A stretch of 64,000 nt of DNA from Thermobaculum sp. Lineage in GTDB: Bacteria > Chloroflexota > Chloroflexia > Thermobaculales > Thermobaculaceae. Position 1 is the stretch's first letter, and each line of letters opens with the position of its first letter. The notes under the pieces are model-generated. The model did no database searches. It was given only the letters and a program-made list of their open reading frames with translations, and was not told the origin of the DNA. Of this stretch, positions 9,206 through 59,808 are shown one piece after another. The translations under genes were made by a program, and so were the position numbers. Location: contig JADDPA010000178.1 of NCBI GenBank assembly GCA_016782125.1, positions 42,547-106,546 of the forward strand, in the 5' to 3' direction.

Positions 9206-9209
9206 AGCA

Positions 9210-12915: not shown

Positions 12916-14027
12916 CGGAACCTGCGATCCTGGTGCTCGAGGACGGACGTGCCTTCTATGGCGACAGTTTCGGCGCCCCGCCCGAGGCGGAAGGGGAGGT
13001 AGTGTTCAGCACCTCTATGACGGGCTACCAGGAGATGTGCACCGATCCCTCGTACCACGGGCAGATCCTTTGCCTCACGTACCCAATGATCGGGAACTAC
13101 GGGGTCAGTCCAGAGCACGACCAGTCGGTTCGGCCGTGGGTGTCGGGCCTGATTGTGCGGCAGCACTCCTCGGCTCCGTCGCACTGGGGCAGCATGGGCA
13201 CACTCGACGCATACCTTCGCCGGCACGGTGTCGCCGGGCTCAGCGGCATAGACACGCGTGCGCTCACTCGCCACATCCGAGCTCACGGCTCGCGCCGCGG
13301 CATCATCGTGTTCGGTGATATTGATACGAAAGTCGAAGAGCTGGTGTTGCGCGCGCGGAGTGCGAAGCTGCCTTCGGAGCGCGCGGGGTTGTCGGAGGTC
13401 AGTGGCGGCAGCGGGACCGTTGAGGCAGCGGAGTCCGAGCACCGTAAGCGGATTGTGGTAATCGACTGCGGCCTCAAGACGAACATCCTGCGTGCCTTGG
13501 CGACGCGTGGCACCGAGCCTATCGTCGTGCCGTACAGCGCGACAGCTGAGGACGTTCTCGCGCTCGATCCAGACGGAGTAGTGACGTCCCCAGGTCCGGG
13601 AGACCCGGAGAATGCGCAAACGCCGATTCGCACGGTGAGCGCGTTGCTGGAGCGCAACGTCCCCTTCTTCGGCATCTGTCTAGGCCACCAGATCCTGGGA
13701 CTGGCCATAGGCGGCACGACGAGCAAGCTCAAATACGGGCATCGAGGAGGCAATCATCCGGTGCAGGATGTCGCGACGGGTAGAGTCTACATAACTTCAC
13801 AGAACCACGGATACCAGGTAGATGCCGAGAGCGTGCCACTCAGCCTCGGCTGGCGTATCAGCCACCACAATGTGAGCGATGGCTCCGTGGAAGGGCTGGT
13901 GCACACCGAGAAACCTGCCTTCTCCGTGCAATACCATCCGGAGGGATCGCCGGGTCCGGACGAGAATGCATACCTGTTCGAGAAGTTCGTCGGCAGCATG
14001 CAGCACCGGACGGGGAGGGAGGCGTAG
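12912..14027 (+). CDS. carA: Carbamoyl-phosphate synthase small (glutaminase) subunit
   Basis: GATase triad motif FGICLGHQ. ATGA overlap with pyrC. Confidence 0.95.
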   Translation: MTEPAILVLEDGRAFYGDSFGAPPEAEGEVVFSTSMTGYQEMCTDPSYHGQILCLTYPMIGNYGVSPEHDQSVRPWVSGLIVRQHSSAPSHWGSMGTLDAYLRRHGVAGLSGIDTRALTRHIRAHGSRRGIIVFGDIDTKVEELVLRARSAKLPSERAGLSEVSGGSGTVEAAESEHRKRIVVIDCGLKTNILRALATRGTEPIVVPYSATAEDVLALDPDGVVTSPGPGDPENAQTPIRTVSALLERNVPFFGICLGHQILGLAIGGTTSKLKYGHRGGNHPVQDVATGRVYITSQNHGYQVDAESVPLSLGWRISHHNVSDGSVEGLVHTEKPAFSVQYHPEGSPGPDENAYLFEKFVGSMQHRTGREA

Positions 14028-17000
14028 ATGCTGGAAACAACTAGGGAGAGAACCGTTCTGGTGATCGGCTCCGGTCCCATCATCATCGGTCAGGCGGCGG
14101 AGTTTGATTATGCAGGCACCCAGGCGTGCCGAGCGCTGCGCGAGGAGGGTGTGCGCGTCGTCCTCGTCAACTCGAATCCCGCGACGATTATGACCGACGA
14201 TGAAGTAGCGGACCGCGTGTACATCGAGCCCCTCACCGTCGAGGTGCTGGAGCGGGTAATCGAGCGCGAGCGGCCGTATGGCCTCTTGCCGACGCTCGGC
14301 GGCCAGACCGGGCTGAACCTCGCCGTTGAGCTCGCGAATGCCGGGGTGCTGGAGCGCTGGGATGTGCGCCTGCTGGGCACCCCGCTACACAGCATCCGCG
14401 AGGCAGAGGACCGCGACCTCTTCCGGCAACTGCTCATTCGCATTGATGAACCCTCAATCGACAGCGTTACCGTCCATACGGTTCAGGAGGGACTGACCTT
14501 CGCAGCGAAAGCCGGCCTCCCGTTGATCAGCCGCCCGGCCTACACCCTTGGTGGCACTGGTGGCGGGATGGCGGCAAGCATCCCGGAGCTGACGGCGCTG
14601 CTGGAGCGTAGCCTCCGGGCAAGCCCGATCGGGCAGACGCTTGTCGAGCGGTCCGTGGCCGGTTGGAAGGAGGTGGAGTACGAGGTGCTGCGGGACGGCG
14701 CGGACAACGCCATTACCGTCTGCAACATGGAGAACTTCGATCCTGTGGGTGTGCATACGGGTGATTCCATTGTCGTCGCACCAAGCCAGACCCTATCGGA
14801 CCGGCAGTACCAGATGCTTCGTACAGCGTCGTTGAAGATCGTGCGAGCGCTCGGAATCGAAGGTGGCTGCAACGTACAGTTCGCGCTTGATCCACGTTCT
14901 GACCGCTATTACGTCATCGAGGTGAATCCGCGGGTTAGCCGGTCGTCCGCACTCGCGTCAAAGGCAACGGGTTACCCGATAGCGCGCGTCGCGGCCAAGA
15001 TTGCGTTGGGGAAGCGGCTCGACGAGATTCCAAACGCCGTTACCGCTGGCACGACCGCGGCGATGGAGCCGGCGCTTGACTACTGCGTCGTGAAGATACC
15101 CCGGTGGCCGTTCGATAAGTTCGCGGGCGGAGATCGCCGGGTCGGCACGCAGATGAAGGCGACCGGTGAGGTCATGGCGATCGAGCGCACCTTCGTTGCC
15201 GCCCTCCACAAGGCCGTTCGGTCCCTCGAGCTCGGGGGTAGGACGCTGCTCTGGGAGGCGCCCGAGTGGCAGGACGAGACCGCCCTCTTACAGGCGATCA
15301 GTTCGCCCACGGACATGCGGCTCTGGGCGCTTATGGCGGCGATCCGCAGGGGACACAGCATCGACGACCTGTCCCGCCTCTCGGCGGTGGATCCGTGGTT
15401 CCTCGATGCCCTGCGCTCCATCGCCGACCTTGAGTGCGAATTGCGTACGAGAGGACTGGAGCCGCGTATCCTGCGTCTCGCGAAGCGGAACGGGTTCTCG
15501 GACTCACTCATCGCAGCCCTGGTGGGCGCCAGCGAGGAGGCAGTTCGCGCTCGTCGCCGTCAGCTGGGCGTGATGCCGGTCTGGAAGATGGTGGATACCT
15601 GCGCCGCGGAGTTCGAAGCGACGACGCCGTACTTCTACAGCACGTACGAGCAGGAGAACGAGGCGCTGCCGCTCGGGGGGCACTCGTCCCTCGTGCTCGG
15701 TTCCGGGCCGATTCGAATCGGTCAGGGCATCGAATTCGATTACTGTAGCGTCCACAGCGCGAAGGCGCTGCACGATGCGGGCGTCCGGAGCGTCATGCTC
15801 AACAGCAACCCCGAGACCGTCTCTACCGACTTCGACACGTCGGACCGACTCTACTTCGATCCACTCGATGAGGAGAGTGTCCGTGATATCCTGGAGAACG
15901 AAGGACTTGAGTCACTCAGCACCGGATACCCTGTGCAGGCCAAGCTCGATGGCGGCAGCTGGCCGGTGGCTGGTCCGCCTGTGATCGTGCAGTTCGGCGG
16001 ACAGACGGCGATCAACCTCGCGTCGGGTCTGCATACCGCGGGGTTCAGCGTCCTCGGCAGCTCGCTGGATGCGATCGACCTCGCGGAGGACCGTGAGCGC
16101 TTTGAACAATTCCTGAATGGCCTGGGCATGCGACGTCCGGAGGGGGCGAGCGTTCGTGATGTGCCCGGCGCAATCGCGGCCGCGCGGCGCCTGGGTTATC
16201 CCCTGCTTGTGCGTCCGTCGTACGTGCTTGGCGGCAGGGCGATGCGCATCGTGCACGACGAGGACGATCTCCTGGCGTACATTCACACCGCCGCCGAGAT
16301 TAGCGGTAAGCACCCTGTGCTGATCGACCGCTACATCGCCGGGCGCGAGGTGGAAGTCGACGCGGTGTGCGACGGGGAGCGAGTGCTCATCCCGGGTATT
16401 GTCGAGCACATTGAGCGGGCTGGTGTGCACTCCGGTGACAGCTTCGGGGTGTATCCCCCTGTGGATCTCACGCCGGAGGAGTCGGCTCAGGTCGAGGAGA
16501 TGACCGTACGGATCGGCCTGGGCCTCGGCCTGAAGGGACTGATGAACGTGCAGTACGTCGTTCAGGAGGGCCTGGTATACGTGCTCGAGGTGAACCCTAG
16601 GGCGAGCCGGACGGTACCCTTCATCAGCAAGGTCACTGGGGTGCCGATGGTCGCGCTGGCTACCCGCGTTATGTTAGGTGAGACGCTCGAGGACCTGGGC
16701 TACGAGAGTGGCCTGATGCCCGAGCGGGACCTGTGGGCGGTGAAAGCGCCGGTGTTCAGCATGTCCAAGCTGACGGGCGTCGATACCGCGCTCGGTCCCG
16801 AGATGAAGAGTACCGGCGAGGTGATGGGCATCGACACCCAACTCGGCCCGGCCATGATGAAAGCGATGCTCGCTTCAGGGATCAACCCTCCGGCGGGTGG
16901 TACGGTGCTCCTCTCGGTTGCGGAGCGACACAAAGAGGAGGTCGTCGAGTTGGCTCGCGACCTTGTGGACCTGGGCTACAGCCTCGCATGCACAGAGGGC

Positions 17001-17318
17001 ACATCTACGTTCCTCGAGCAGCGCGGCGTGCGCGTCTCCCAGGTCGTGCATAAGATCGGCTCGGTCCGCCCGGACATCACGGACATAATCCGCCGCCGTC
17101 AGGTGTGCGCTGTGATCAACACCATCAGCCCAAGCAAGAAGCCGGTACGGGATGGTTTCGAGATCCGGCGCGCGGCTGTCGAAGCTGGCATCCCGTGCCT
17201 CACCTCGCTCGATACCGCGCGCTCGCTCGTCCGCGCCTTGCTCGGCCGCGGCGCGTATCACGTCGCGACCGTCACGGAGTATCGCGAGGGCCGTCTCTCT
17301 CTCGTGGAGCAGGCATGA
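14028..17318 (+). CDS. carB: Carbamoyl-phosphate synthase large subunit
   Basis: 1096-aa ORF with two ATP-grasp halves ([24 protein letters not shown] and [22 protein letters not shown]) and a C-terminal MGS-like domain. Confidence 0.97.
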
Positions 17319-18022
17319 GCGGCAATCCGCCCCTGGACGTGGATGCCGTACTCTTCGACCTGGACGGCACGCTTGTCGATACCACGGAGTTGATTATTTC
17401 CTCGCACGAGCACACGCTGGCGCAGCATTACCGCGGGCCACAGCGGCCAACCCGGCGAGAGATTCTGCGCAATCTCGGTCGCTCTCTTCCGGCAACATTG
17501 CGTGAGTATGCGGCTGCGGATCAGGCCGCCCACGCGGGTGAGGCTGCCGAGCAGATGCTGCAGACGTACAGAGATTACCAGCGCGCCAACCATGACAGGA
17601 TGATTCGGCCATTCGAAGGCATACGAGAGACGCTTGACGAATTGGCTCGGCGCGGATACTTGCTCGGCGTGGTGACGAGCAAGATGGAGGCGAACGCACG
17701 CCTCGCGCTTGATATGTACGACCTGGGTGGCAACCTGCCTTTCGGGGTATTCCACGACGACACCGAGCGGCACAAGCCCGATCCCGCCCCGCTGCTTCTC
17801 GCTGCGCAGAAGTACCGGCTGGACGTGTCGCGCACCGCTTATATTGGGGATAGCATCCACGATATGGCCGCTGGACGTGCGGCGGGGATGCGCACTGTGG
17901 CGGCGCTGTGGGGGCCATTTCCCCGCGCGGATCTCGAGGTGGAGCGGCCGGATATCTTCGCGACCACCCTCGATTCGTTGCTGGATATCTTCCCGGCTCG
18001 CACTAGTCCAAGGTCCGTCTGA
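17315..18022 (+). CDS. HAD-superfamily phosphatase (PpaX/Gph-like) embedded in the pyr operon
   Basis: ORF 17105..18022. Start moved to ATG 17315 (ATGA overlap with the carB stop). Motif [10 protein letters not shown], motif II VVTSK, motif IV GDSIHD. Confidence 0.8.
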
Positions 18023-18736
18023 TTGGGTGCCGCTGAGACCGCGACGGTGGTGCAGAGCGCGGCCTTACAGCCTGGACTTTTCGGGTTGCGCCTCGAAGCC
18101 GATGCTCGGCTCGTACAGGCGTGCGAGCCAGGTCGATACCTGATGCTCAGCGTGGGGGATGGAAACGAGCCGTACCTGCCGCGGCCGTACTGGGTGCGCC
18201 GTGTGTCGGCGGTCTGGCTGAATCTGCTCGTAGGCGTCGGTGGAGCCGGCAGCGGTTGGCTGGCGACCCGACGGCCGGGCGACCCTGTGGAGTTCTTCGG
18301 CCCTTTGGGCACCACGTTGATTCCTCCGCCCCGCACGCGCCGGCTCCTGCTCTCGGGGGATCTTCCGGGGCTTAACTGCCTGCTCGCGCTGGCGGATCGT
18401 GCGCTTGCCCGTGATATCGAAGTAGCACTCGTGTTCCATGGCGCGGTCGATACCTCGGCTCGGCTGATTCCCCCTGATGTCGAGCTTCTGACGGAACTGA
18501 ATGCGAGCGCGCTCACGTGGGCTGACGCGCTGTACGCCATCGGCGACCCCAGCGTCGTGCATACGGCGAAGGCCGCGCTCCGAACGGCCGGTAGCCGGAT
18601 TCCAGCCTTCGGCGTGCCGCACGTACCGCTGGCCTGTGGTGTCGGAGCATGCTATGGCTGCCTCGTCGAGACGCGCAGGGGTCCAAAGCTAAGCTGTGTC
18701 AATGGTCCGGCGTTCGGACTCGCGGATTTGTCGTGA
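18023..18736 (+). CDS. pyrK: Dihydroorotate dehydrogenase B electron-transfer subunit-like protein
   Basis: 237-aa ORF directly upstream of, and overlapping, pyrD. C-terminal 2Fe-2S cysteine pattern CGVGACYGC...C. The flavin/NAD motifs look divergent (RPYW, no clear G-rich loop). Confidence 0.72.
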   Translation: MGAAETATVVQSAALQPGLFGLRLEADARLVQACEPGRYLMLSVGDGNEPYLPRPYWVRRVSAVWLNLLVGVGGAGSGWLATRRPGDPVEFFGPLGTTLIPPPRTRRLLLSGDLPGLNCLLALADRALARDIEVALVFHGAVDTSARLIPPDVELLTELNASALTWADALYAIGDPSVVHTAKAALRTAGSRIPAFGVPHVPLACGVGACYGCLVETRRGPKLSCVNGPAFGLADLS

Positions 18737-19680
18737 GCCAGGAGACTTCCGTTACCATTGGTGCCGGTACCCCGCGCCCTCTGACGATGCGCAATCCCGT
18801 GATGTCCGCCGCCGGGACGTTCGGCTACGGCGTCGAATACGCCCGTCTGCTTGATCTGAGCCGTGTTGGGGCGATCGTGACGAAGTCCACAACCGTGCGC
18901 CCACGAGCTGGGGCATCGATGCCTCGCTGGGTAGAGACGCCGTCCGGCGTGCTCAACGCGATCGGTCTGAACAACCCCGGTATCGGTCGTGTCCTGCGGG
19001 AGTACGCTCCAAAGTGGAGCAGCCTTCGTGCGCCGGTTGTGCTGAGCATCGCTGGGGAGTCGGTTGAGGAGTACGTCGAGATCGCCCAAAGAGCCGAGGA
19101 GGCTGAGGCGATCGCTGGGCTCGAGCTCAACGTGTCGTGCCCGAATGTGTCCGAGGGCGGCGCCTTGTTCGGCTCGGACCCCGTCCAGGCTGCGAGCATC
19201 ACTGGGGCCCTGCGCGCGGTGACCAGTTTGCCCCTGATCGTGAAGCTTACGCCGAACGCCGCAAGTGTGGCGGAGGTGGCAATGGCGGTGGAGGCTGCCG
19301 GGGCTGACGCGGTCTCGCTCGTGAACACGATAGCCGGGCTCGTCATTGATGTCGAGGGTCGGCGGCCCTTCCTGGGCAACGGCGGCGGCGGTTTGAGCGG
19401 TCCCGCGATCCGGCCAGTGGCGGTTCGCCTGGTGTGGGACGTGGCGCGGGTGGTCACCGTGCCGGTGGTCGGCCTTGGTGGTATCGCGCGCGTCGAGGAT
19501 GCGCTGCAGTTTATAATGGCCGGAGCCTCTGCGGTGCAGGTCGGCAGCGCCGGGTTTGCCAAGCCAGACACGATCATCAGGGTCGCGGAGGACCTTGCCG
19601 ACTGGATGGCGCGCCACGGTGTAGCCAGCTTAGATGAGATTCGCGGATGTGCCATGCCAGGTTGCGAAGGTCGCGAGTGA
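18733..19680 (+). CDS. pyrD: Dihydroorotate dehydrogenase, catalytic subunit (class 1B)
   Basis: ORF 18649..19680. Start moved to GTG 18733 (GTGA overlap with pyrK). Motifs NPVMSAAGTFGYG, ELNVSCPN, GGGLSGPAIRP. Confidence 0.92.
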   Translation: MSQETSVTIGAGTPRPLTMRNPVMSAAGTFGYGVEYARLLDLSRVGAIVTKSTTVRPRAGASMPRWVETPSGVLNAIGLNNPGIGRVLREYAPKWSSLRAPVVLSIAGESVEEYVEIAQRAEEAEAIAGLELNVSCPNVSEGGALFGSDPVQAASITGALRAVTSLPLIVKLTPNAASVAEVAMAVEAAGADAVSLVNTIAGLVIDVEGRRPFLGNGGGGLSGPAIRPVAVRLVWDVARVVTVPVVGLGGIARVEDALQFIMAGASAVQVGSAGFAKPDTIIRVAEDLADWMARHGVASLDEIRGCAMPGCEGRE

Positions 19681-21799: not shown

Positions 21800-23524
21800 G
21801 TGTCACGTGAGAGTGCGCTGCTGGGAGCGGCGGAGGATCTGCTGGCGTGTGGCCCGCTCCCCGAGGACGAGCTGGCGCGCGCACTGTACGGTGCCACGGG
21901 ATCGGTCGCTCCATGGGTGAAGCTGCTTCGGTCGTTGCTCAAGGGGAGTGAGCGGGCACGCCGTCGCGCCGACGGCCGATGGGAACTCATCCGTCTGGAT
22001 GTGGGCCCACCTGTCCTCGTCGCGGGTCGAAGCACGCGAGCCCGGCACGGTCGGTTGCTCGCCCTGGCGATTGCACCGGCCGACAATCCGTGCGCAGTGC
22101 ATCAATGGTGCTTCGAGTCGGACACGCGGCCGGCGCGGTACGTCGCTGAGGCTGACCGGGAGCAACACGATGAACCTGCAGTGCCGTTCGGAGACGCGGC
22201 GGAATCGGTGGGCGAGCTACTTCGCGACCGTGTGATCTGGGTGCTCGATGCGGACGTGCCTGCCCTGATTGCCGCCGAGTTGCAAGAGGTGGGACGGGCC
22301 CGGCCATGGGTCGATGTGCTGGTGTGCCAGAACGACGTGTGGACGGCAGCAGGACGTAAGCGCTCGATGGAAGCGGTCCGCGCCTCGCTTGGCCTCACAC
22401 CGGTTGCCGGAGATGCACTATGCGGCGAGTTGGAAGTCATTGCCCGCGTGGCAACGCGAAGTAGCGTCGGACACTCCACCGAACCTGTTCCGAAACGCGC
22501 TCGTGTCTCAGCGCTTCGATCCGCGGCCGCGGCACTGCCAGAAAGTCCGGGCGTGTACCGGTTTCACGATGCCTCCGGCTCGGTACTCTACGTTGGCTCC
22601 GCTACCAATCTGCGCCGCCGGGCGCTTTCGTACTTTGGTGAGCAGATTACTCTCACTCGTGGGCTGCACGGTCTGCTCGAACGTTCTCACACACTTGAGT
22701 TCGTTCCGGCAGGTACCCATCTCGAATCGGTCGTGCACGAAGCGCGACTAATCGCGGAACTTGAGCCGCCCTACAACGTCCAGCGCCGTGTCTCCGAACG
22801 CCAAGCGTGGCTGCGCATCGGGGCAGAGCAGCCGAAGAACGTCGTGCATGTGGCTTCGGCTCCGCGGACGGACAGGGCGCTCTATCTCGGACCGCTCCCG
22901 AACCGGACGTCCGTGAACGCAGTTGCGGCTGCGATTGCGACGCTGTGGGGTTTTTCGCGAAGAGGCGGAAGTGCACGGGTATCTGAAGCGTCACTCAGCC
23001 GGCTCAACGACATCCGTGAACTACTTGAGCAGCCGGACATATTCTGCGCCGAACTTCGCTCGCGGCTATACACCATGGGGACTGGACTCTCAGATCGGGC
23101 GCGGGCGGTGCTGGCGGAGAACGTCGACCGCACGGAGCGGGCGGTACTCGCGGGCGAACTCCGCCCGATGGACAGCGACCGCCATAGCGCGATCGTTGCC
23201 CGCCCTGACGCCGCGACTGGTGCGGTGTCTCTGCTCCTTGTGCGCCATCTGGTGTGTCACGCATCCGACCAGGTCGATTCGCCCGACGTAACGATGCTTT
23301 CGGAAACTATCAATGAGTTACTCCAATCTATCGCGGCACCAAACGATGCTGTAGCAGCAGAGATGGTGCTGGTGGCTCGCTGGCTTCATGCACACCGGGA
23401 CGACCCCTGGGTGCAGCCGGTGAGTTTGGGGGCGGATCAGATCGCCAATCGCCTCGCGGGCGCCCTGCAGGAGCGGCTGACTGAGGCCGAATCGTTGCAG
23501 TTGCCAGCCGCCGATGAATGGTGA
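21800..23524 (+). CDS. Cho/UvrC-like GIY-YIG nuclease with N-terminal degenerate DEDD (DnaQ-like) region
   Basis: 574-aa ORF. GIY-YIG core PGVYRFHDASGSVLYVGSATNLRRRALSYF ... EARLIAELEPPYN, followed by a UvrC-like LYLGPLP segment. GGGAGGGA SD before GTG 21800. Confidence 0.75.
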   Translation: MSRESALLGAAEDLLACGPLPEDELARALYGATGSVAPWVKLLRSLLKGSERARRRADGRWELIRLDVGPPVLVAGRSTRARHGRLLALAIAPADNPCAVHQWCFESDTRPARYVAEADREQHDEPAVPFGDAAESVGELLRDRVIWVLDADVPALIAAELQEVGRARPWVDVLVCQNDVWTAAGRKRSMEAVRASLGLTPVAGDALCGELEVIARVATRSSVGHSTEPVPKRARVSALRSAAAALPESPGVYRFHDASGSVLYVGSATNLRRRALSYFGEQITLTRGLHGLLERSHTLEFVPAGTHLESVVHEARLIAELEPPYNVQRRVSERQAWLRIGAEQPKNVVHVASAPRTDRALYLGPLPNRTSVNAVAAAIATLWGFSRRGGSARVSEASLSRLNDIRELLEQPDIFCAELRSRLYTMGTGLSDRARAVLAENVDRTERAVLAGELRPMDSDRHSAIVARPDAATGAVSLLLVRHLVCHASDQVDSPDVTMLSETINELLQSIAAPNDAVAAEMVLVARWLHAHRDDPWVQPVSLGADQIANRLAGALQERLTEAESLQLPAADEW

Positions 23525-45790: not shown

Positions 45791-48259
45791 ATGAGCGGCG
45801 AGCGAAGTAGTGAGAGATTCGACAAGTTCACGGAGCGGGCGCGCAAGGTACTGAGCCTAGCGCACGAGGAAGCCGCGCGCTTCAACCACAACTATATTGG
45901 CACCGAGCATTTGCTACTGGGTCTCGTGCGCGAGGGCGATGGCGTTGCTGCCCGCGTGCTTGCGAATATGGGCGTGCAGCTTCAGAAGGTGCGGGCTGCT
46001 GTAGAGTTCATTATCGGCCGCGGTGAACGTGCGCCTCAGGGCGAGATCGGGCTGACGCCACGCGCCCGGCGCGTCATTGAGTTGGCGTTCGATGAAGCCC
46101 GGCGGCAGAACCACCACTACATCGGCACTGAGCACCTGCTACTGGGTCTGGTGCGCGAGGGTGAGGGCATTGCGGCGGGGGTGCTGGAAAGTCTCGGCGT
46201 CAGCCTGGAGAAGGTGCGCGCTCAGGTGATCCAGGTGATCAATCAGAGCAGCTCGTACAGCCAGCAGGGCAAGACGGCGACCAAGACGCCATACATTGAC
46301 GCTCTTGGCACCGACCTTACCGAGGCCGCTCGCAACGATAAGCTTTTCCCGGTGGTTGGCCGCCAGGGGGAGATCGAGCGTGTAATGCAGATTCTCTCGC
46401 GGTTGACGAAAAACAACCCGGCGCTCATCGGTGAGCCCGGCGTTGGCAAGACGGCAATTGTCGAAGGTCTCGCCCAGCGCATCGTGAATCACGAGGTCCC
46501 GGAGACGCTGCTGAACAAGCGGGTGCTTGCGCTCGATATGGGTGCGCTGGTCGCCGGCACGAAGTATCGCGGTGAGTTTGAGGAGCGCCTCAAGAAGATC
46601 ATGGCGGAGATTAAGGACTCTGGCGCGATCCTCTTTATTGATGAGCTGCATACTCTGGTTGGCGCCGGAGCGGCAGAAGGTGCCGTTGATGCGGCCAACA
46701 TCCTCAAGCCAGCCCTGTCTCGCGGTGAGGTCCAGGTCATCGGGGCGACGACGCTGGATGAATACCGCAAGTACATCGAGCGCGATGCAGCGCTCGAGCG
46801 CCGGTTCCAGCCCGTCCAGGTAGATGAGCCGGACACGGAGCAGACCGTCGAGATCTTGCGCGGCGTACGCCCTCGGTATGAGGAGCATCACCGCCTGAAG
46901 ATCTCCGATGAGGCGCTGCACGCAGCGTCGCACCTCGCGGCGCGATATGTCCCGGACCGCTTCATGCCGGACAAGGCGATCGACCTGATTGACGAGGCGT
47001 CGAGCCGGGTGCGGATGTACCGAGCGGTGAGTCCGCCCTCTCTGAAGGACGCGATGCGCCACCTCAAGGCCATCCAGGACGAGAAGGAATCCGCGATCAA
47101 CGCGCAGAACTATGAGATGGCTGCAGACTTCCGCATGCGCGAGGAGCGCTTGCAGGAGCGGATCGATCGATTGCAAAGCGCGTGGCAGGAGGAGCAAAGC
47201 ACGGACGAGCCGTTCGTGACTGAGGAGGACATCAGCCAGGTCGTCAGTATGTGGACGGGGATTCCCCTGACCCGCATTGCTGGCGAGGAGTCAGAGCGGC
47301 TGCTTCAGATGGAGGCGGAGCTGCACGAGCGGATCATCGGACAGGAGGAGGCGATAAAGACCGTCGCCCGCGCTGTCCGTCGCTCGCGCACCGGCATGAA
47401 GGATCCACGCCGGCCGGTTGGTAGCTTCATCTTCCTCGGCCCGACTGGCGTGGGTAAGTCGGAGCTCGCCAAGACACTGGCTGAGTTCATGTTCGGCAGC
47501 GAGGACGCCCTCATCAAGATCGACATGTCCGAGTTCATGGAGCGACACGCGGTTGCCCGCCTGGTTGGCGCGCCTCCTGGATACATCGGATACGAGGAGG
47601 GCGGTCAACTCACGGAGGCAGTGCGGCGTAAGAGCTATTCGGTGATCCTGCTCGACGAGATCGAGAAGGCTCATCCCGAGGCCTTCAACATGCTGCTGCA
47701 GATCCTCGAGGATGGCACGCTGACGGACGCGAAGGGCCGTAAGGTCAACTTCCGCAATACGATCATCATCATGACGAGCAACATCGGTGCAGAATACATC
47801 AACCGCAACACTGGTATCGGTTTCTCGCCGCGGGGCGAGACCGCCGAGATGCAGGAGCGGGAGTATGAGGGGATGCGCGAGCGGGTCACGGATCAGCTCA
47901 AGCAGAACTTCCGGCCCGAGTTCCTGAACCGCATCGACGGCGTGATGGTGTTCCATGCGTTGAAGCCGGAAGAGATTCGCCAGATCGCGGATATCCAGAT
48001 ACAGCGAGTCCGCGAGCAGCTTGCCGAGCAGCAGATCACGATAACGCTGACCGATGAGGCGATGGACATGCTGGCGCGCAAGGGCTACGATCACACCTTC
48101 GGTGCGCGGCCCCTCCGCAGGCTCATCCAGAACGTTATCGAAGATCCTCTGGCCGAGGGAGTGCTCGAAGGGCGCTTCCAGGCAGGATCGAGTGTCGTGG
48201 TGGATGTGCAGGATGGCGAGATTGTCCTGCACCCGGCGGACGAACTGGTTCCGGTCTAG
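45791..48259 (+). CDS. clpC: ATP-dependent Clp protease ATP-binding subunit ClpC
   Basis: ORF 45734..48259. Start moved to ATG 45791 after GGGGGAG. Duplicated Clp_N repeats ([13 protein letters not shown] twice), two AAA+ modules ([18 protein letters not shown]), UVR-like linker. Confidence 0.95.
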
Positions 48260-52019: not shown

Positions 52020-52959
52020 GCTGTCTGCAAGATTTCTGGCCGAGCCCGAGACCGCAGACCAGCGGCTAGACGTCGTCATCAGTGCCAAACAAGGTGTGTC
52101 TCGGTCCCAGGCGCGGGCAGCGATTTTGCGCGGCGATGTCCTGCTGAACGGCTCTCCGGTAAAGCCTTCGGTGCGACTACAGCCGGGTGACGAGGTTACG
52201 GTGCTTGGTAATCACTCGGCACTGGCCGTCGCTCGCCTCGAACCCGAGGACATCCCGCTCAAGGTTGTGTACGAGGACGAAGATCTCGTCGTGATCGAGA
52301 AGCCCGCGGGGATGGTCGTGCATCCGTCCGCGGGACACTCGTCCGGCACGCTGGTTCACGCGCTATTGGCCCGCTATCCCGAGTTGCGAAGTGGCGATGC
52401 GCGCCCGGGCGACGAGGAGCGACCGGGGATCGTTCACCGGCTCGACAAGGACACAAGCGGGCTGATGCTCGTCGCGCGCACTCAGCACAGCCTTGGTTAT
52501 CTCCAATCCGCGATGCACGATCGGCGAGTGCTCAAGGAGTATACCCTGCTGTGTTGTGGTCCCCTCGATCCCGCGTCCGCACGAATCGAAGCACCGATTG
52601 GCCGCCATCCCGGAAACCGTCTGAAGATGGCAGTGGTTAGCACGGGACGCCCGTCGGTTACCGAGTATGAAACATTGCAGGCACTGCCGCAGCATACCCT
52701 CACGCTGGCTCGCCTCCACACCGGTCGTACGCACCAGATTCGGGTGCACTTTGCCTCCATTGGTCGCCCGATAGCGGGTGACAGCCTCTATGGTGGCTGT
52801 GCGGCGCCTGGGCTGGACAGACAGTTTCTCCATGCGTCGCGCCTCGGGCTGACGCTCCCCAATGGCCGGTGTGCGGAGTGGCGGAGCGCGCTTCCGGAGG
52901 ACCTTGCAGAGTGCCTGTTGGCAATTGGTGCACAGGTCCCGACCGCCGCGAGCGGGTAA
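52003..52959 (+). CDS. rluD: RluA-family 23S rRNA pseudouridine synthase (RluD-like) with S4 domain
   Basis: ORF 51976..52959. Start moved to GTG 52003, 9 nt after GGGGGAGG. Catalytic motif HRLDKDTSG. Confidence 0.88.
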   Translation: MNDQPELSARFLAEPETADQRLDVVISAKQGVSRSQARAAILRGDVLLNGSPVKPSVRLQPGDEVTVLGNHSALAVARLEPEDIPLKVVYEDEDLVVIEKPAGMVVHPSAGHSSGTLVHALLARYPELRSGDARPGDEERPGIVHRLDKDTSGLMLVARTQHSLGYLQSAMHDRRVLKEYTLLCCGPLDPASARIEAPIGRHPGNRLKMAVVSTGRPSVTEYETLQALPQHTLTLARLHTGRTHQIRVHFASIGRPIAGDSLYGGCAAPGLDRQFLHASRLGLTLPNGRCAEWRSALPEDLAECLLAIGAQVPTAASG

Positions 52960-52967
52960 TCGCGGCG
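52944..52967 (+). terminator. Hairpin spanning the rluD stop codon
   Basis: CGCCGCGA (52944-52951) pairs with TCGCGGCG (52960-52967), loop GCGGGTAA. No U-tract. Confidence 0.3.
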
Positions 52968-53226
52968 ACTCGACGAATGCACCTTTTTCCGATCGATTTG
53001 TGAGGCGCTGTAAAAAGGCGGCTTAGCGGTAACACGAAGTGCACCCGTGTGGTAGCTATCGCGCATTATCACCGTTCCCGTCCGGGCTAGCCGGTGATTG
53101 CGTGACGCAGAACACCTCTTGCTCTATGGGAATAATGCTGGCACTTCATGTGATTAATCTGTGCAGGTCCCCTCGCGATCTCGAGCGTCGCAGGGGCAAC
53201 ATCGAGCGCGATTCAGGAGGAACAAA

Positions 53227-53643
53227 ATGCCCAAGAGAGATAGACTGTCTCCAGGCGCCGTTAGCCTGCTGCAAGAGCCTCAACTGGCGCACATGACCAC
53301 GCTGATGCCCGACGGTTCGCCACAGACGACTCCGGTCTGGGTCGATGTGGAGCCTGATGGTGGCCACGTGCTCGTCAACACCGCGGATACTCGGCTCAAG
53401 GTCGGAAACGTTGAGCGGGATCCAAGGGTCTCGATCACTGTTGCGGATCGGGGCAACGATTGGCGATTCGCCCTGGTGCGCGGCAATGTGGTGGAGCTGC
53501 GGCACGAGGGCGCGGACGAGCATATCGACAAGCTGGCGAAGAAATACCTGGGCCAGGACACGTACCCTTTTCGGAACCCGGCTGAACGACGGGTCATTCT
53601 CCGCATAAAGCCAAATCATGTGCTCGAGCAGGGCACGGGATAG
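53227..53643 (+). CDS. PPOX-class (pyridoxamine 5'-phosphate oxidase-like / F420-dependent) family protein
   Basis: ORF 53161..53643. Start moved to ATG 53227 after AGGAGGAACAAA. Pattern LAHMTTLMPDGSPQTTPVW...NTA..R.K..N...DPRVS. Confidence 0.78.
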   Translation: MPKRDRLSPGAVSLLQEPQLAHMTTLMPDGSPQTTPVWVDVEPDGGHVLVNTADTRLKVGNVERDPRVSITVADRGNDWRFALVRGNVVELRHEGADEHIDKLAKKYLGQDTYPFRNPAERRVILRIKPNHVLEQGTG

Positions 53644-53678
53644 CTAGCGGTCTTCAGAGTCTTCGGCGAAGGAAGTAG

Positions 53679-53720
53679 CACGAACTACGGGCGGTTCTTC
53701 GCAGCCACCCGTAGTTCGTG
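53679..53720 (+). terminator. 13-bp perfect hairpin terminating the PPOX-family gene
   Basis: CACGAACTACGGG (53679-53691) pairs with CCCGTAGTTCGTG (53708-53720), followed by TTCGTTG. Confidence 0.6.
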
Positions 53721-53793
53721 TTCGTTGCACACGGCAGGGCTGATCTCAGATTTGAACACCACCTCGGATGAGGGCAGCTTGTACCGGATCCAT

Positions 53794-53820
53794 GCTTCGG
53801 GCTGCTGGCATAGCCGAAGC
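53794..53820 (+). other. Hairpin abutting the -35 box of the DAHP-synthase leader promoter
   Basis: GCTTCGG(G)CT pairs with AGCCGAAGC (9 bp, one bulge), ending 1 nt before TTGACG. Role unknown (insulating terminator or operator). Confidence 0.35.
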
Positions 53821-53849
53821 TTGACGCGACGCACCGGTGACGCTACACT
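53821..53849 (+). promoter_or_regulatory. Promoter TTGACG-17 nt-TACACT driving the DAHP synthase leader
   Basis: -35 at 53821-53826, -10 at 53844-53849. ATG at 53857 is 7 nt after the -10, so the transcript would start at or next to the start codon. Confidence 0.5.
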
Positions 53850-53856
53850 AACGGCT

Positions 53857-53943
53857 ATGAAGCAGTCCGTGGTAAACGTCAACTATGCATGGTTTACGTT
53901 CCGGCCCGCCCCCGACGGGGTTGGCTGGTCGTTCGTGAGCTGA
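53857..53943 (+). CDS. Candidate leader peptide MKQSVVNVNYAWFTFRPAPDGVGWSFVS (28 codons, 6 aromatic)
   Basis: C-terminal part of track ORF 53725..53943. Run TAT GCA TGG TTT ACG TTC at 53884-53901. Followed by alternative GC-rich pairings and a terminator. Confidence 0.45.
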   Translation: MKQSVVNVNYAWFTFRPAPDGVGWSFVS

Positions 53944-53984
53944 TGATTTAGCCACCGACACCAACCAAACAAGTCGTGGGGGAG

Positions 53985-54009
53985 CAGGGGCAAAAGCCTC
54001 TGTTTTTTT
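53985..54009 (+). terminator. Intrinsic terminator (attenuator) in the DAHP synthase leader
   Basis: CAGGGGC (53985-53991), loop AAAA, GCCTCTG (53996-54002), then seven T (54003-54009), 50 nt upstream of the gene start. Confidence 0.65.
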
Positions 54010-54059
54010 GTGTCCGCGGGATTGGCAACTGCGTGGGCGAGCACAGGGAGGATTGGTCC

Positions 54060-55403
54060 ATGGAAGCCAGCAAGCACGCGATGATGGTGGTTATGCAATC
54101 GGGGACGACCCTGGACGAGATCGAAGAGATTCGGAGACAGGCACGTGAATCGGCTCTCGATGCGGACGTGGTCGTCGGTGTTGAGCAATCAATCATTGTC
54201 GTCACCGGCACCCTGGATCCCGGTTTCGTTGACCGGCTGCACACCCTGCCTGGCGTCGAAGAAGTGGTCCAACGCGGAAACGGCCGCCCGCCGGACACCA
54301 GCGACCTGCGTGTCGAGAGCATACGGCCACTTCTGCCGCCCGCTGTACTCCTCGAGGAGCTGCCACTCACGCGCGACGGCGCGGTGGCGGTAAGCCGGTC
54401 CCGCGATGAGGTGGTACGCATACTGAGTGGCGAGGACGACCGGCTGCTCGTGGTCGTCGGACCATGCTCGATCCACGACCCTGCCGCTGCTGTCGAGTAC
54501 GGACAGAAACTGAAGTTGCTCTCGGATGAGCTTGCGTCCGACCTCTGCATCGTTATGCGCGCGTATTTCGAGAAGCCGCGTACCACGGTCGGATGGAAAG
54601 GGCTCATCAATGACCCACATCTGGACAACAGCTTCGCAGTGAACGACGGCCTGCAGATGACGCGTGCGCTACTGCTGAACCTCATCGCTCTGGGCCTGCC
54701 CGTCGGGTGCGAGTTCCTCGACCCGATCCTGCCGCAGTTCTTCGCGGACCTTGTCACGTGGGGCGCAATCGGCGCGCGCACCACCGAGAGCCAAGTGCAC
54801 CGCCACCTGGCATCAGGGCTTTCCATGCCGGTCGGCTTCAAGAACGGCACGAGCGGGAGCGTGCAAATCGCCATTGATGGCGTGCGCGCTGCGGCCAGTC
54901 CCCATAGTTTTCTGGGCGTGACGGAGCAGGGCATCGCCGCGGTTGTCAGTACTCGTGGGAACCCGGACTGCCACGTTATCTTACGGGGTAGTTCGACGGG
55001 ACCAAACTACGACAGAGCACACGTGAGCCAAACACTGGAGCTGCTGCGAAAGTGTGAACTGCCACCGCGTGTCATGATCGACACCAGCCACGGGAACAGC
55101 GGAAAGGACTTCCGCAAGCAGCCGGTCGCGGCGAGCGAGGTCGGATCGCAGGTTGCTGCAGGCGAGGCGGGCATCGTCGGCCTGTTGATGGAGAGCTTCC
55201 TCGAGAACGGCGCGCAGGAACAGCGACTCGGTCGGGATCTGGTGTACGGGCAGAGCATCACTGACGGCTGCATGGGCTGGGACATGACCGTTCCGGTGCT
55301 TCGTGGCCTGGCCGAGGCGGTGCGTGCACGCCGATCCGGCGCAACGGTATCAGCTAGGGCCCGTAAAGGCGACGCGCTATCCCTTGGAGCGCATCCAGGG
55401 TAG
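54060..55403 (+). CDS. 3-deoxy-7-phosphoheptulonate (DAHP) synthase, type I-alpha (AroG/F/H-like) core with N-terminal ACT/ferredoxin-like domain
   Basis: ORF 53976..55403. Start moved to ATG 54060 after GGGAGGA. The core aligns along its length with my recollection of E. coli AroG (DDRLLVVVGPCSIHDP, YFEKPRTTVGWKGLINDP, WGAIGARTTESQVHR, PVGFKNGT). The first ~85 aa (MMVVMQSGTTLDEIEEIRR...IIVVTG...LPGVEEVV) resemble the FL/ACT domain of Thermotoga-type DAHPS. Confidence 0.92.
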   Translation: MEASKHAMMVVMQSGTTLDEIEEIRRQARESALDADVVVGVEQSIIVVTGTLDPGFVDRLHTLPGVEEVVQRGNGRPPDTSDLRVESIRPLLPPAVLLEELPLTRDGAVAVSRSRDEVVRILSGEDDRLLVVVGPCSIHDPAAAVEYGQKLKLLSDELASDLCIVMRAYFEKPRTTVGWKGLINDPHLDNSFAVNDGLQMTRALLLNLIALGLPVGCEFLDPILPQFFADLVTWGAIGARTTESQVHRHLASGLSMPVGFKNGTSGSVQIAIDGVRAAASPHSFLGVTEQGIAAVVSTRGNPDCHVILRGSSTGPNYDRAHVSQTLELLRKCELPPRVMIDTSHGNSGKDFRKQPVAASEVGSQVAAGEAGIVGLLMESFLENGAQEQRLGRDLVYGQSITDGCMGWDMTVPVLRGLAEAVRARRSGATVSARARKGDALSLGAHPG

Positions 55404-55589
55404 GCCGCATTCGGCACTTCCCCAAACGGGCCGGGTGTCACTGGGCCTCTCTTATCCGGATATACGTCAAATGAGGGATGTCTCACCCTCGCGTGTCGTC
55501 GTAATATGTCACCGAGGGTCCGGAACGTGTCAGGGCACGCTTTGGTGTGTACTCAGCCACTAGCAATCATCGCGGAACAGGGGGGAATC

Positions 55590-56363
55590 GTGCTCGGAGT
55601 AGGCAGGCGTGAAAAGAATGCGGTCGCGCAACCGCAAGCTACGACCGAACAGATGATGGATCAGCCGATCATTGTCGCGAAGGACGTGGAGAAAGTCTAC
55701 GATACGGGAAAGGTACGGGTACACGCCCTTCGCGGCGTGAGCTTGACCATCACTCGGGGCGAGATGGTCGCGATAATGGGGCCGTCAGGATGTGGCAAGA
55801 CAACCCTCCTCAACGTACTGTCCGGTCTCGACGAGGTGTCTGCTGGAACCATCGTGCTCGATGGTCGGCCGATGGAGAGCATGTCGGATAAGCAGCGGAC
55901 GCGTTTTCGCGCCGAGAAGATGGGCTTTATCTTCCAAAGCTATAACCTGATGCCGGTACTCTCAGCCGTTGAAAACGTGGAGTTACCGCTGCTGGTCGCT
56001 GGTTCCAAGAGCCGTGATGCGCGCAAGCGTGCTCTCGAGACACTTGCCCTGGTTGGATTGGCAGATCAGGCGAATCAGCGGCCGGCGGAACTTTCCGGCG
56101 GACAGCAGCAGCGCGTCACGATCGCCCGAGCGCTCGTGAACCATCCTGCGCTCGTCTGGGCAGATGAGCCGACCGGAGCCCTGGACAGCGAAACGAGCGG
56201 CGACATTATGGACCTGCTCTCGCGTTTGAACCGCGAGTACGAGCAGACCTTCGTGCTTGTGACGCACGACCCCTCTGTCGCCGCGCGTGGGGACCGCACC
56301 ATCTTCATGCGCGATGGCGCCATCGAGAGCGACAGGCCCAACCAGCGACCCACGGGGGCATAG
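55590..56363 (+). CDS. ABC transporter ATP-binding protein (MacB/LolD-like)
   Basis: ORF 55506..56363. Start placed at GTG 55590 after GGGGGGA. Walker [10 protein letters not shown], signature LSGGQQQR, Walker B VWADEPT. Confidence 0.9.
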
Positions 56364-56411
56364 AGCACACACCAGACGTCCGTTGTCGTACTGAGTGTGT
56401 GAGGGATAGAC

Positions 56412-59400
56412 ATGCAAGACATTTTCGGTTTGCCGGTACAAACGCTGATGACTGTGCTGCTCGCCCTCTTTCTTGTGGGGGCGGCAATCATCGGCGTGCT
56501 GGCATTGCGCAACACGGTGATGTTCAAGATGGGCGTGCGCAACGTGCCGCGTCGTCGGGCGCAGACCGCATTAATTGTACTCGGCCTTATGTTGGCGACG
56601 CTGCTCTTCTCCGCGTCCTTCACGACCGGTGATACGCTGGTGCATTCCAATCGCGTTCGCGCTCTCAGCACCCTTGGAGAGGTCGACATCCAGGTTCAAT
56701 CAACCCGAGGCGCCGCTTCGCAGCTGGATCAGCTACTCGGCCCTGGCGGGCGAGCCGCCGTCTACTTCGACCAGACGCTGGTGGACCGTGTTCGGCGTGC
56801 ATTGGAAAACGACGCCGAGGTGGAGGGTGTCGCGCCACTGGTTTCGGAATCAGCCCCCGTACTTGCACCCTATAGCAGGCTAAGCGAGCCGCAGGTTAGC
56901 CTGCTCGGTGTCGACGCAGGATCTCAGGCGGGGTTCGATCGGCTCAAGCAGGCGGACGGTGCCGAGCTGTCTGTCCGCTCGCTTGCAGACGGTCAGGTCT
57001 ATATCAGCGAGACGCTCGCCACTGAAATTGGGCTCCGCGTGGGGGACAAGGCGCAAGTCTTCTTGAGTGAAAAGCCAACGCTAGTCACCGTTCGCGGCAT
57101 TTATTCGGAGGGTGGGGTTCCGGCGGCGGAGAACTCACTCGTGATGCCACTGGAGCGCATGCAGGCGTTGACCGGCAACGTGGGCAGGATCAACTCCGTG
57201 TTGATCACCCATAGGGGGGATGAGATCGAGGGCGCCGAGCATACGGATGGGACGCTCGCGGCGCTGCAGCCCCTGCTACGCGGATCCGGCTTGGAGGCGA
57301 GCCCCGTCAAACGCGATGCACTAGAGCGTGCCGACCGCGAAGGTGGCGGCTTTGCGGACATCTTCACCCTCTTTGGCGGCTTCTCGATTGCCGCGGGTGT
57401 GCTTCTGATCTTTCTGATCTTCGTGATGCTCGCCGCCGAGCGGAAGCGCGAGCTCGGTATTGCCCGTGGTGTCGGCATGCAGCGTCGTCATCTCGTTCGA
57501 ATGTTCACGTTTGAGGGCGCGGTCTACTCATTGCTTGCTGCGGCTGTCGGCAGCGTGCTGGGCGTGGCGGTTGGATGGCTGATGGTGCGGGTCATCACGG
57601 CCGCTTTTGCACAGTTCAATCAGGAGATCGTGTTCGACTTCCAATGGTCAAGCCTGGTAATCGCGTACACCCTGGGCATGGTTATCACCTTCGCCGTGGT
57701 GGTCGTGTCGTCGTGGCGAGCGAGCCGCCTGAACATCGTGCGGGCGATACGTGACATCCCCGAGCCGCGAACAAGCCGTCGTACCTGGAAAGGGCTCCTT
57801 GGGACCGCCGCGCTCCTGCTCATTGGGGCTCTACTGACGGTCTCGGGCCTCTCAGCGACGTCCATCGCGCTCTTTATGCTCGGCACCTCGCTGCTCGTCA
57901 TCGGCGCTGCGTTGCTGGTCCGTCGCCTTGGTGTGCCGGACAGGGTAGCCTTCACCGTGGCCGGTGTGACGCTGCTGGTGTGGTGGCTGCTACCTAACTC
58001 CGTGTCTGACGCGATACTCCCCGCTTCACTGGACGATACGGGTGGTATTGAGATGTTCTTCATCTCCGGCATCATGATCGTGATCGCGGCTGTGTGGACG
58101 GTGATCTACAACTCTGACCTGCTCCTGCGCCTGATCGTTGCCCTGTTCGGTCGGGTGCGGGGGCTGCCGCCGGTCCTGAAGACCTCGGTGTCGTATCCGA
58201 TGCAGAACCGCTTCCGCACAGGCATGACGCTCGCGATGATCAGCCTCGTCATGTTCACCCTGGTCGTCATGAGCTTCATCACGAATGCCTTCGCCGGGAT
58301 CTGGGATGACACCCATCGTTGGAGTGGTGGCTTTGACATCCGGGCAAGCACCAGCTACACAAATCCCGTGCCCGACATGACCGCGGCTCTCCGTACCGTC
58401 GATGGATTGAAGCCGGGTGATATCGTCGCCGTGGGAAGCTTCTCCAGCGCTCCGGTGAAGGCTAAGGCGGCCGGGACCGACGGCGAGCCAGCCAATCTCA
58501 ACATCAACGCTGCAGATGATGCGTACACGGACGTCGTTTCTTATGCATTCGGATCACGTGCGGCAGCGTACAAGTCCGACCGCGCGGTATGGCAGGCCCT
58601 GAAGTCGGAAGATGGTACCGCGGTGGTTTCGGCGATCACCGTGCCGGCAAAGGTAAATCAGGAGTTCGGTGAACAGCCCCCGCCGGTGCGGCTGAGCGGT
58701 TTCTTCCGTGAGGACCCGATCGTGCCCGAAAACACGTATATCGAGGCACAGGACCCGCGCATCGGACGAGTTCAGCGACTGAGAGTCATTGGTGTGCTCG
58801 ACGATGTGGCGCTGTCCACGGGCGATGTGCTCGTCTCCCAGCCCACGCTCGAAGGACTGATCCAAGCACCGGTACCGGCAGAGAGCTACTTCTACAAGCT
58901 GCGCCCGGGTGTCGACGCAGTGGCCGCCACTAGGGCACTGGAAGCTGGGTTCCTGGCCAATGGGATGCAGGCGGAGTCGATCCGAGAGGAGATAGATACC
59001 TTCGCAGGTACGAACACGATGATCAACACGCTGCTACAAGGCTTTATGGGACTGGGGCTGATCGTGGGAATTGCGGCGCTTGGCGTGATCGCGGCTCGCG
59101 CGGTTGTCGAACGCAGACAGCAGATCGGTGTGCTGCGCGCGATGGGATTCCAACGCAGTCAGGTGCAGTTGTCGTTCCTGCTGGAGTCGAGCTTCGTGGC
59201 ACTTCTCGGCATAGCCATTGGCATCGCGCTTGGTCTCGGACTCTCGCGCAACGTAATTGGCGGCTTTGCCGAGCAGTTTCCGGGGGTGCGCTACGAGATC
59301 CCGTGGCTGCAGTTACTGGTGCTCGCAGGGTTGGCGTATCTGTCCTCGCTTCTGACCACCTATCTGCCCGCTCGTCAGGCGAGCCGGATACATCCCGCGG

Positions 59401-59758: not shown

Positions 59759-59784
59759 GCTATATTATCGGGATCCGCGCATCT

Positions 59785-59808
59785 GGGGAGCCGAACGCTC
59801 CCCTTTTT
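59785..59808 (+). terminator. Canonical intrinsic terminator
   Basis: GGGGAGC, loop CGAAC, GCTCCCC, then TTTTT. Nested inside an outer stem GCGCATC (59777-59783) / GATGCGC (59809-59815). Confidence 0.8.

Follow-up and report, generated by a model that had tools for sequence, protein, structure and literature searches.

A candidate leaderless attenuator upstream of a DAHP synthase gene in Chloroflexota

How is the entry to aromatic amino acid biosynthesis controlled in a bacterium of the Chloroflexota? The question is raised by a 64,000-nucleotide (nt) stretch of a Thermobaculum sp. contig (the window), in which the gene for 3-deoxy-D-arabino-heptulosonate 7-phosphate (DAHP) synthase is preceded by a promoter, a short open reading frame (ORF) rich in aromatic codons and a terminator hairpin. 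The original prediction read this arrangement as a possible attenuator of the pheL/trpL kind on a leaderless transcript. Our sequence-level tests fit that reading and support it in its essentials, and we consider it likely that DAHP synthase is controlled by a transcription attenuator that is leaderless and ribosome-mediated. Computation shows the component parts and how well they are conserved, the competing folds, and how the antiterminator depends on ribosome position. From these we infer where transcription starts, that the ORF is translated, the kinetics of the switch and its response to the supply of amino acids.

Promoter, leader ORF and conservation

The 5' part of the element has four components:

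53821-53826, + strand: -35 hexamer TTGACG, from a consensus scan; invariant in seven of seven loci
53844-53849, + strand: -10 hexamer TACACT (TANNNT type), from the same scan; invariant, and 7 nt before the ATG, in seven of seven loci
53857-53943, + strand: leader ORF of 28 codons plus TGA, MKQSVVNVNYAWFTFRPAPDGVGWSFVS, from ORF translation and comparison
53884-53895, + strand: regulatory codons TAT GCA TGG TTT (Tyr10-Ala11-Trp12-Phe13), kept across loci

The promoter TTGACG-17 nt-TACACT (53821-53849) and the ORF opening 7 nt past its -10 hexamer are present as originally described. This promoter is one of only two sigma-70-like sites that the consensus scan found in 52500-56500. The leader ORF, which ends at TGA 53941-53943, has no Shine-Dalgarno sequence, and the conserved TACACT 7 nt ahead of the conserved ATG fits the signature of leaderless genes. 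A TANNNT about 12 nt ahead of the start codon is the published mark of such genes, and leaderless genes with this motif have been predicted in some Chloroflexi (PMC3160421). Judging from these signals, transcription probably starts at or beside ATG 53857, and the leader ORF would be translated leaderless.

Aromatic codons make up 6 of the 28 (21%), against 5.7% in the long ORFs of the window, an excess with P~0.005 by rough Poisson arithmetic. Four of them, Y10, W12, F13 and F15, lie within 53884-53901, and Phe13 is encoded by the rarer TTT (0.67%, against 2.00% for TTC, in window codon usage).

To what extent is this arrangement conserved? We compared the window with six loci from separate samples, giving seven loci and five distinct sequences. 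Four are contigs (L001-L004) whose DAHP synthase is 81-92% identical to that of the window, and two (L104 and L113) were found by scanning metagenomes with an 18-mer of the leader. The scan returned 26 contigs, only 2 of which carry the leader, both ahead of DAHP synthase; the other 24 are chance matches. In all seven loci, the block from the -35 hexamer to the T-tract lies directly ahead of DAHP synthase. Conservation begins exactly at the -35 hexamer, the 17-nt promoter spacer is variable, and the sequence from TGG (53890) to the T-tract is near-invariant. With the RNA numbered from 53850 as position 1 (window coordinate = position + 53849), the window shares 87-90% identity with L002 or L003 over positions 41-156. 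This is despite only 57-59% identity at the third codon positions of DAHP synthase in the same pairs and DNA upstream of the promoter that cannot be aligned, which argues that the block is under strong selection. Across the set, third-position identity to the window is 57-64% in five loci and 84% in the closest.

Within the leader, every locus keeps the ATG and has the TGG at the same 33-nt distance from it, with no insertion, deletion or stop between them despite many differing sites, and no variant closes the reading frame. Tyr10 is kept through TAT/TAC changes, and Trp12 and Phe13 are invariant, in seven of seven loci. Codons 3-9, 11 and 15 vary, those at 3, 5, 7, 8, 9, 11 and 15 with a change of amino acid (N7C, V8H, N9I/K, A11T, F15S/C), and the variable sites in the N-terminal half fall on all three codon positions. 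The peptide sequence itself is thus not selected, only its start, its length and three aromatic codons, which is the look expected of a leader peptide. A gene called at 601-723 of L003 was considered as the leader peptide and rejected, being in another frame.

The 3' half of the leader behaves differently. In L002, L104 and L113, three independent samples, one additional C within the C-run puts the ORF out of frame past codon 19, and the ORF then ends 9 nt further downstream at a TAG, which still lies in the apical stem of a conserved hairpin (hairpin B, below). Because the frame shifts while the RNA is unchanged, this half must be conserved as RNA and not as peptide. The shift removes W24 and F26, and the L002 lineage has a Trp at codon 23 of its own frame. 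The original count of six aromatic codons stands, and Y10, W12 and F13 are conserved, but W24 and F26 are not, and neither is F15, which other loci replace with Ser or Cys. The relevant stall site would therefore be Y10/W12/F13 and not W24/F26, which had been put forward as a possible one.

Because the conserved block runs from promoter to terminator as a self-contained unit of about 150 nt, it might instead be a free-standing small gene, for a small RNA or a peptide of 28-31 amino acids, that acts elsewhere and merely adjoins DAHP synthase. There is precedent in Sinorhizobium, where attenuator RNAs, once released, and leader peptides can have functions in trans (PMC6614838, PMC7298713). However, the block is directly ahead of DAHP synthase at every locus, the motif has no other copy in the 64-kb window, and the other metagenome contigs with the leader carry it only before this gene. 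No conserved promoter-like site between terminator and gene (54010-54059) appears in the scan or the seven-locus alignment, and the peptide is unconserved past codon 19. A role in trans would also supplement attenuation in cis, not replace it. We regard a free-standing gene as quite unlikely.

Alternative folds and ribosome position

If the element is an attenuator, its RNA should adopt exclusive folds that depend on the position of the ribosome. The parts of this putative switch are as follows:

53901-53928 (positions 52-79), + strand: local hairpin "1:2", CCGGCC-C-GCCCC / CGAC / GGGGU-U-GGCUGG, from folding and sequence comparison
53909-53981 (positions 60-132), + strand: long imperfect hairpin B, in minimum-energy and centroid folds, -36.2 kcal/mol
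53903-53991 (positions 54-64 with 129-142), + strand: antiterminator, in which 53903-53913 pairs with 53978-53991 and B is extended at its base, -44.3 kcal/mol
53982-54009, + strand: intrinsic terminator with core 53985-53991 / 53996-54002, loop AAAA and U-tract 54003-54009, from folding and comparison
54010-54059, + strand: spacer with the Shine-Dalgarno sequence GGGAGG (54046-54051), from sequence, scan and alignment

The pairings drawn by eye in the original prediction all recur in these folds. The C-rich segment 53901-53913 pairs with 53917-53928 through 11 pairs with one mismatch around the loop CGAC (-20.2 kcal/mol). This local hairpin is the first stable fold as transcription proceeds, and it can be extended to 53891-53941 (positions 42-92), with GGUUUACG pairing with CGUGAGCU at -29.1 kcal/mol. 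Its sequence is invariant in all loci save for the single-C insertion of the L002 lineage, and it would serve as a pause hairpin or an anti-antiterminator. The GGTTGG..GTCG / CGAC.CCAACC pairing forms part of hairpin B. The apical stem of B contains the leader stop codon, and substitutions between loci cluster at its loop and bulges. The pairing of the C-run with 53978-53991, which captures the GGGGC of the terminator 5' arm, is the minimum-energy fold for RNA ending at 53991-53995 (lengths 142-146), just before the terminator 3' arm.

The terminator, CAGGGGC-AAAA-GCCTCTG-T7 (53985-54009), has a stem of 7-10 bp and a folding energy of -10.4 kcal/mol, which extension of the stem brings to -14.3 kcal/mol. 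It is the sole hairpin followed by a T7 run in the 64 kb. Across loci, the stem is invariant, the loop varies and 6-7 T are kept; the spacer beyond is much less conserved than the leader. A consensus terminator scan missed this hairpin though it seemingly satisfies the scan's own stated definition, and the negatives of that scan are not to be over-read. Another hairpin, A, around the aromatic codons (53871-53906; positions 22-57) was considered and rejected, since changes in its 5' arm are uncompensated.

We propose that transcription begins at or near ATG 53857 and that a ribosome reads the 28-codon leader as polymerase makes the next 100 nt. With charged Tyr-, Trp- and Phe-tRNA ample, the ribosome would translate codons 14-28 and reach the stop codon near the apex of B, where it would occupy or separate the 5' strand of the antiterminator and hold the arms of B apart. 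The terminator at 53985-54009 would then form, ending transcription about 50 nt short of the gene. If one of the three tRNAs is scarce, the ribosome would stall at Tyr10, Trp12 or Phe13 with its front edge at about 53902-53905, leaving free the C-rich strand 53903-53913 and the rest of the B 5' arm. Hairpin B would form, and its base would extend onto 53978-53991, sequestering the terminator 5' arm and allowing read-through into the gene. In RNA that carries no ribosome, the extended local hairpin 53891-53941 would probably trap the 5' arm, so that transcription terminates.

We computed the dependence of this switch on ribosome position by masking the RNA under the ribosome and upstream of it and folding the downstream part, for four sequence variants. 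The antiterminator is present in all four. As long as the A site is no further along than Trp12, its gain is -7 to -10 kcal/mol; moving the A site to codons 13-14 reduces this to -0.7 to -2.4 kcal/mol in all four, and at the stop codon the figure is -0.7 to -3.8 kcal/mol, varying with the variant and the assumed footprint. The antiterminator is thus lost once the A site passes codon 12-13, which would make the conserved aromatic codons the last stall positions that leave the antiterminator strand free. Among 400 dinucleotide shuffles, only 0.5% match the dependence of the antiterminator on nt 53903-53908 (positions 54-59).

By path search, the barrier to refolding into the antiterminator is 13.3 kcal/mol for naked RNA and 3-9 kcal/mol with a stalled ribosome, and the barrier from antiterminator to terminator is 5-9 kcal/mol. 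As modeled, these figures fit a kinetic switch of the trp type, although they are no proof of it. A kinetic switch is what the energies call for, because the fold with the terminator and B is always the one at equilibrium.

Several observations, the equilibrium fold among them, weigh against the attenuator. The energy of the antiterminator is unexceptional for so G+C-rich a sequence, being equaled by 12-20% of the shuffles. A ribosome stalled with Phe13 in its A site makes the antiterminator a borderline case if its footprint reaches at least 12 nt downstream, and with the A site at codons 22-28 the terminator 5' arm gains weaker partners in some variants (up to about -6.6 kcal/mol). In two crude co-transcriptional simulations, the outcome varied with the barrier threshold and was not robust; the sole stable result, that a running ribosome lets the terminator form, is not relied on here. 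Each aromatic amino acid has a single conserved codon, with no tandem run. The related loci, whose alignment had been proposed as a check, share the ORF start and Y10/W12/F13 but show no compensatory base changes, their stems being invariant. Only four or five distinct leader sequences are available, and the element appears confined to a narrow clade, since four DAHP synthase orthologues at 65-69% identity have short intergenic regions with no leader, aromatic short ORF or terminator. Finally, the transcription start, leaderless translation and the 3' ends are predictions from sequence.

The invariant stems bear directly on a second explanation, in which the conserved RNA of about 110 nt (53890-54009) works like a riboswitch or a protein-dependent terminator, detecting a metabolite or a protein, and the ORF with its aromatic codons is incidental. 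Nucleotide conservation here is very strong, exceeding that of first and second codon positions in the gene, and shows no covariation, and the C-terminal peptide is unconserved, as this explanation would have it. The same holds for the equilibrium fold of terminator and B, which some factor would have to shift, and for the ordinary antiterminator energy. However, the sites that vary are the wrong ones. In B it is the bulges and loops, the expected site of a ligand pocket, that vary (positions 89, 95-98, 107, 115, 119, 128), whereas the stems do not; of the 16 variable sites in positions 41-156, 11 are unpaired in the fold with B and the terminator, in which 25% of positions are unpaired (P=3e-4), and one further site, U154C, improves a pair. 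A metabolite riboswitch would have invariant junctions and bulges with covarying stems, the reverse of this pattern. Invariant stems are expected if their strands join alternative helices, and as most stem nucleotides here belong to two or three such helices, compensated change would be difficult. The ATG, the leaderless spacing, Tyr10 (with synonymous changes), Trp12 and Phe13 are also kept within a variable stretch, no Rfam family matches, and no run of (G/U)AG repeats of the kind bound by TRAP is visible in the sequence. We think a sensing RNA unlikely.

A third explanation turns on the peptide. The nascent chain W-F-T-x-R-P-A-P might arrest the ribosome on free aromatic amino acids, as TnaC does with tryptophan, and a ribosome held at codons 16-19 would mask the antiterminator strand, favoring termination. 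Trp12-Phe13 and R-P-A-P are indeed kept in all variants, and a ribosome at codons 14-21 abolishes the antiterminator, so the feedback logic is consistent. The R-P-A-P codons, however, are the invariant C-rich strand of two RNA helices, and constraint on the RNA explains them. In addition, leaders in Actinobacteria (described below) read a similar P-A-P in a different frame from a similar CCGGCCC hairpin, which gives it the look of a by-product. An arrest peptide of this kind seems to us very improbable.

The stretch 53890-54009 is nevertheless conserved more strongly than the alternative hairpins alone require, and so it could be more than a passive attenuator. There is a slim chance that the W-F-T-x-R-P-A-P chain or the RNA senses free aromatic amino acids or a pathway intermediate, or that the RNA of about 150 nt, once released, regulates other aromatic-pathway genes in trans, like rnTrpL in Sinorhizobium. 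Sensing of a free ligand or a trans-acting RNA would, if true, give the shikimate pathway a new sensing mode at its entry point.

Taken together, these observations favor ribosome-mediated attenuation. A short ORF with clustered codons for the end products stands directly upstream of the biosynthetic gene, and the regulatory codons are kept in the seven loci while the remaining peptide is free to vary. A terminator lies between this ORF and the gene, with no conserved promoter after it, and an antiterminator excludes the terminator, though its energy is within the shuffled range. In the computed folds, a stall at the regulatory codons permits the antiterminator and advance prevents it, with Phe13 borderline.

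Gene and genomic setting

The gene at 54060-55403 (+ strand) starts with ATG 54060, preceded by GGGAGG at 54046-54051, and encodes 447 amino acids. An in-frame upstream extension from GTG 53976 is ruled out, as an insertion or deletion between the window and L001 breaks the frame there. The protein matches Pfam PF00793 and PF18152 and TIGR00034 (497 bits). Its catalytic domain is of type I-alpha (aroFGH) and is preceded by an N-terminal ferredoxin-like domain, PF18152 (residues 8-71; 54060-54300 in the window), a domain known as the allosteric one in the Thermotoga type I-beta enzyme. The same architecture occurs in many matches from Chloroflexota, Thermomicrobiales and Actinomycetota.

Upstream, the 13-bp hairpin that had been noted at 53679-53720 is real. 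It is perfect, with a 16-nt loop and no T-tract, and follows a gene of the F420-dependent PPOX class. It occurs in the window and L001 only, with no counterpart in L002 or L003, and could be an insertion or a terminator particular to this lineage.

The host belongs to the Chloroflexota, and the closest named relative of its ClpC is that of Thermobaculum terrenum (85% identity). The window is ordinary chromosome with cell-wall genes, a pyrimidine operon, mfd, mutS2, clpC and others; no aromatic-pathway gene besides DAHP synthase was found within its 64 kb. The pyrimidine operon (9189-19680) comprises a uracil/xanthine permease gene, pyrB, pyrC, carA and carB, with pyrD further on, and the Rfam search of the window gave no match for a PyrR-binding site there. 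Two long ORFs on the + strand, 5914-7062 (382 amino acids) and 21800-23524 (574 amino acids), have coding-like G+C content at third codon positions and no Pfam match at E up to 1e-5. Two other terminator-like hairpins were seen: GGGGAGC-CGAAC-GCUCCCC + T5 at 59778-59808 (+ strand), after a gene for a MacB/FtsX-type permease, and CAAC-CCGGCGCUCAUCGGUGAGCCCGG-GUUG + T5 at about 46380-46413 (- strand).

Known attenuators and other DAHP synthase leaders

Does the element belong to a described family? No Rfam family reaches its gathering score anywhere in the window, and a search of 53600-54200 at E up to 10 returned no amino-acid leader family (Trp_leader, Phe_leader, others) and no T-box; the leader is only about 150 nt long. 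The best weak match is ncS16, a Burkholderia small RNA, at 53931-54011 (28 bits, where the cut-off is 48; E=0.002), and most of this match is to the terminator. We take it as chance, as ncS16 has no match at the DAHP synthase loci of Paraburkholderia, Burkholderia and Caballeronia.

The closest parallel by description is in Corynebacterium glutamicum, where the aroR leader peptide (Phe-Tyr-Phe) attenuates the DAHP synthase gene aroF (PMC4046766; Neshat 2014 via PMC11802643). There, as in the window, a short leader with clustered aromatic codons stands before DAHP synthase; the Corynebacterium leader works by ribosome stalling and transcription attenuation, and that of the window would do likewise. 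The leader peptide of C. glutamicum ilvB is, as cited in the same text, made without a ribosome-binding site (Morbach 2000, cited in PMC4046766). The systems differ in phylum, Actinobacteria against Chloroflexota, and in codons, Phe-Tyr-Phe with no Trp against Tyr-x-Trp-Phe here, and the Corynebacterium element reportedly responds to Phe and not to Tyr.

Like trpL-trpE and pheL-pheA of Escherichia coli, the window element follows a four-segment logic built on a 1:2 hairpin formed locally, an antiterminator and a U-tract terminator, and a stall would free the antiterminator strand. The terminator of the E. coli trp attenuator is also more stable than its antiterminator, as is the case here. Unlike the window element, the E. 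coli leaders have a Shine-Dalgarno sequence, tandem codons for one amino acid and genes of a terminal branch downstream, and in the window both strands of the local hairpin belong to the antiterminator 5' arm. In the multivalent leaders of E. coli thr and ilvGMEDA, one peptide reads several amino acids, with many codons of each; the window element likewise would read several, but with one conserved codon each.

Leaderless attenuators also have a precedent, as mycobacterial polycysteine short ORFs at the start of operon transcripts are leaderless attenuators that respond to cysteine (bioRxiv 10.1101/834739). The window element would likewise be a leaderless attenuator of the amino-acid type, whereas the amino acid and the phylum differ. 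To our knowledge, the mycobacterial attenuators do not use a canonical terminator of hairpin and U-tract.

Are aromatic leaders found at other DAHP synthase genes? Among the matches listed, 80 are type I-alpha DAHP synthase loci (L005-L084), 77 of them with enough upstream sequence. These are mostly distant enzymes (53-71% identity) that lack the ferredoxin-like domain, with no close relatives among them. In 19 of these 77 loci, in several phyla, a short ORF upstream has a stretch of five residues of which at least four are aromatic, against 1 of 77 in each of two controls. In 13 of the 19 (Burkholderiales, Xanthomonadales and others), the leader is followed by a strong terminator, CCGCCAG..CTGGCGG-T8, different from that of the window. 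Examples include MSAKFYFYFFWHLRPLADREG in Paraburkholderia, Burkholderia and Caballeronia, MQRQYWFGRPAPDG in Pseudonocardia and MQRYFWFTKPAPGG in Amycolatopsis. Further instances in the survey are L055 (about 2746-2995), L067, L075, L079, L081, L084, L026, L056, L049, L077 and L080. All survey leaders mix Tyr, Trp and Phe, so the mixture, which had been pointed out for the window, is the rule and not unusual. No Rfam family covers these leaders, and we found no description of them in the literature searched. That they are attenuators is a prediction only.

Among the actinobacterial members, a conserved leader ORF, MQR..Y(F)WF.., is seen in Pseudonocardia, Amycolatopsis, Nocardia and Antrihabitans (L023 2840-2995, L035 2811-2971, L042 2816-2977, L078 2815-2992). 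These leaders look leaderless, with a TANNNT 6-8 nt ahead of GTG or ATG, and have no U-tract. In their consensus fold, the Trp-Phe codons UGGUUU pair with the Shine-Dalgarno region of the gene, and CCGGCCC pairs with GGGxCGG. A fold that pairs these codons with the Shine-Dalgarno region and has no U-tract suggests translational rather than transcriptional attenuation, and these leaders may mask the Shine-Dalgarno sequence instead of terminating. Like the window leader, they carry TGGTTT followed by a CCGGCC hairpin, though one nucleotide out of register, 6 nt later in theirs and 5 nt later here. As the P-A-P common to both comes from different reading frames, homology between the two is unproven. 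For genes of Phe and Tyr, a survey of Actinobacteria published in 2005 detected no RNA element (PMC1262725).

Most documented cases of attenuation by leader peptides are from Proteobacteria; Actinobacteria add further ones and Firmicutes a few, and we found no description of it for Chloroflexota in the literature searched. The element in the window is most likely such an attenuator, of a kind known from Corynebacterium and E. coli, and the first that we could find for that phylum. If so, a leaderless transcript with one codon for each of the three aromatic amino acids would control the committed step common to them, and attenuation would act beside the likely allosteric ferredoxin-like domain of the enzyme. 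As aromatic-run leaders stand at about one quarter of the sampled genes among the matches listed, in several phyla, attenuation of the first step of the shikimate pathway may be far more widespread than the one studied case implies. Widespread leaders of this type would matter for genome annotation and for the engineering of strains that produce aromatic compounds. The main value of the window element would thus be as one instance of a seemingly widespread and largely unannotated class of leader-peptide attenuators of DAHP synthase.

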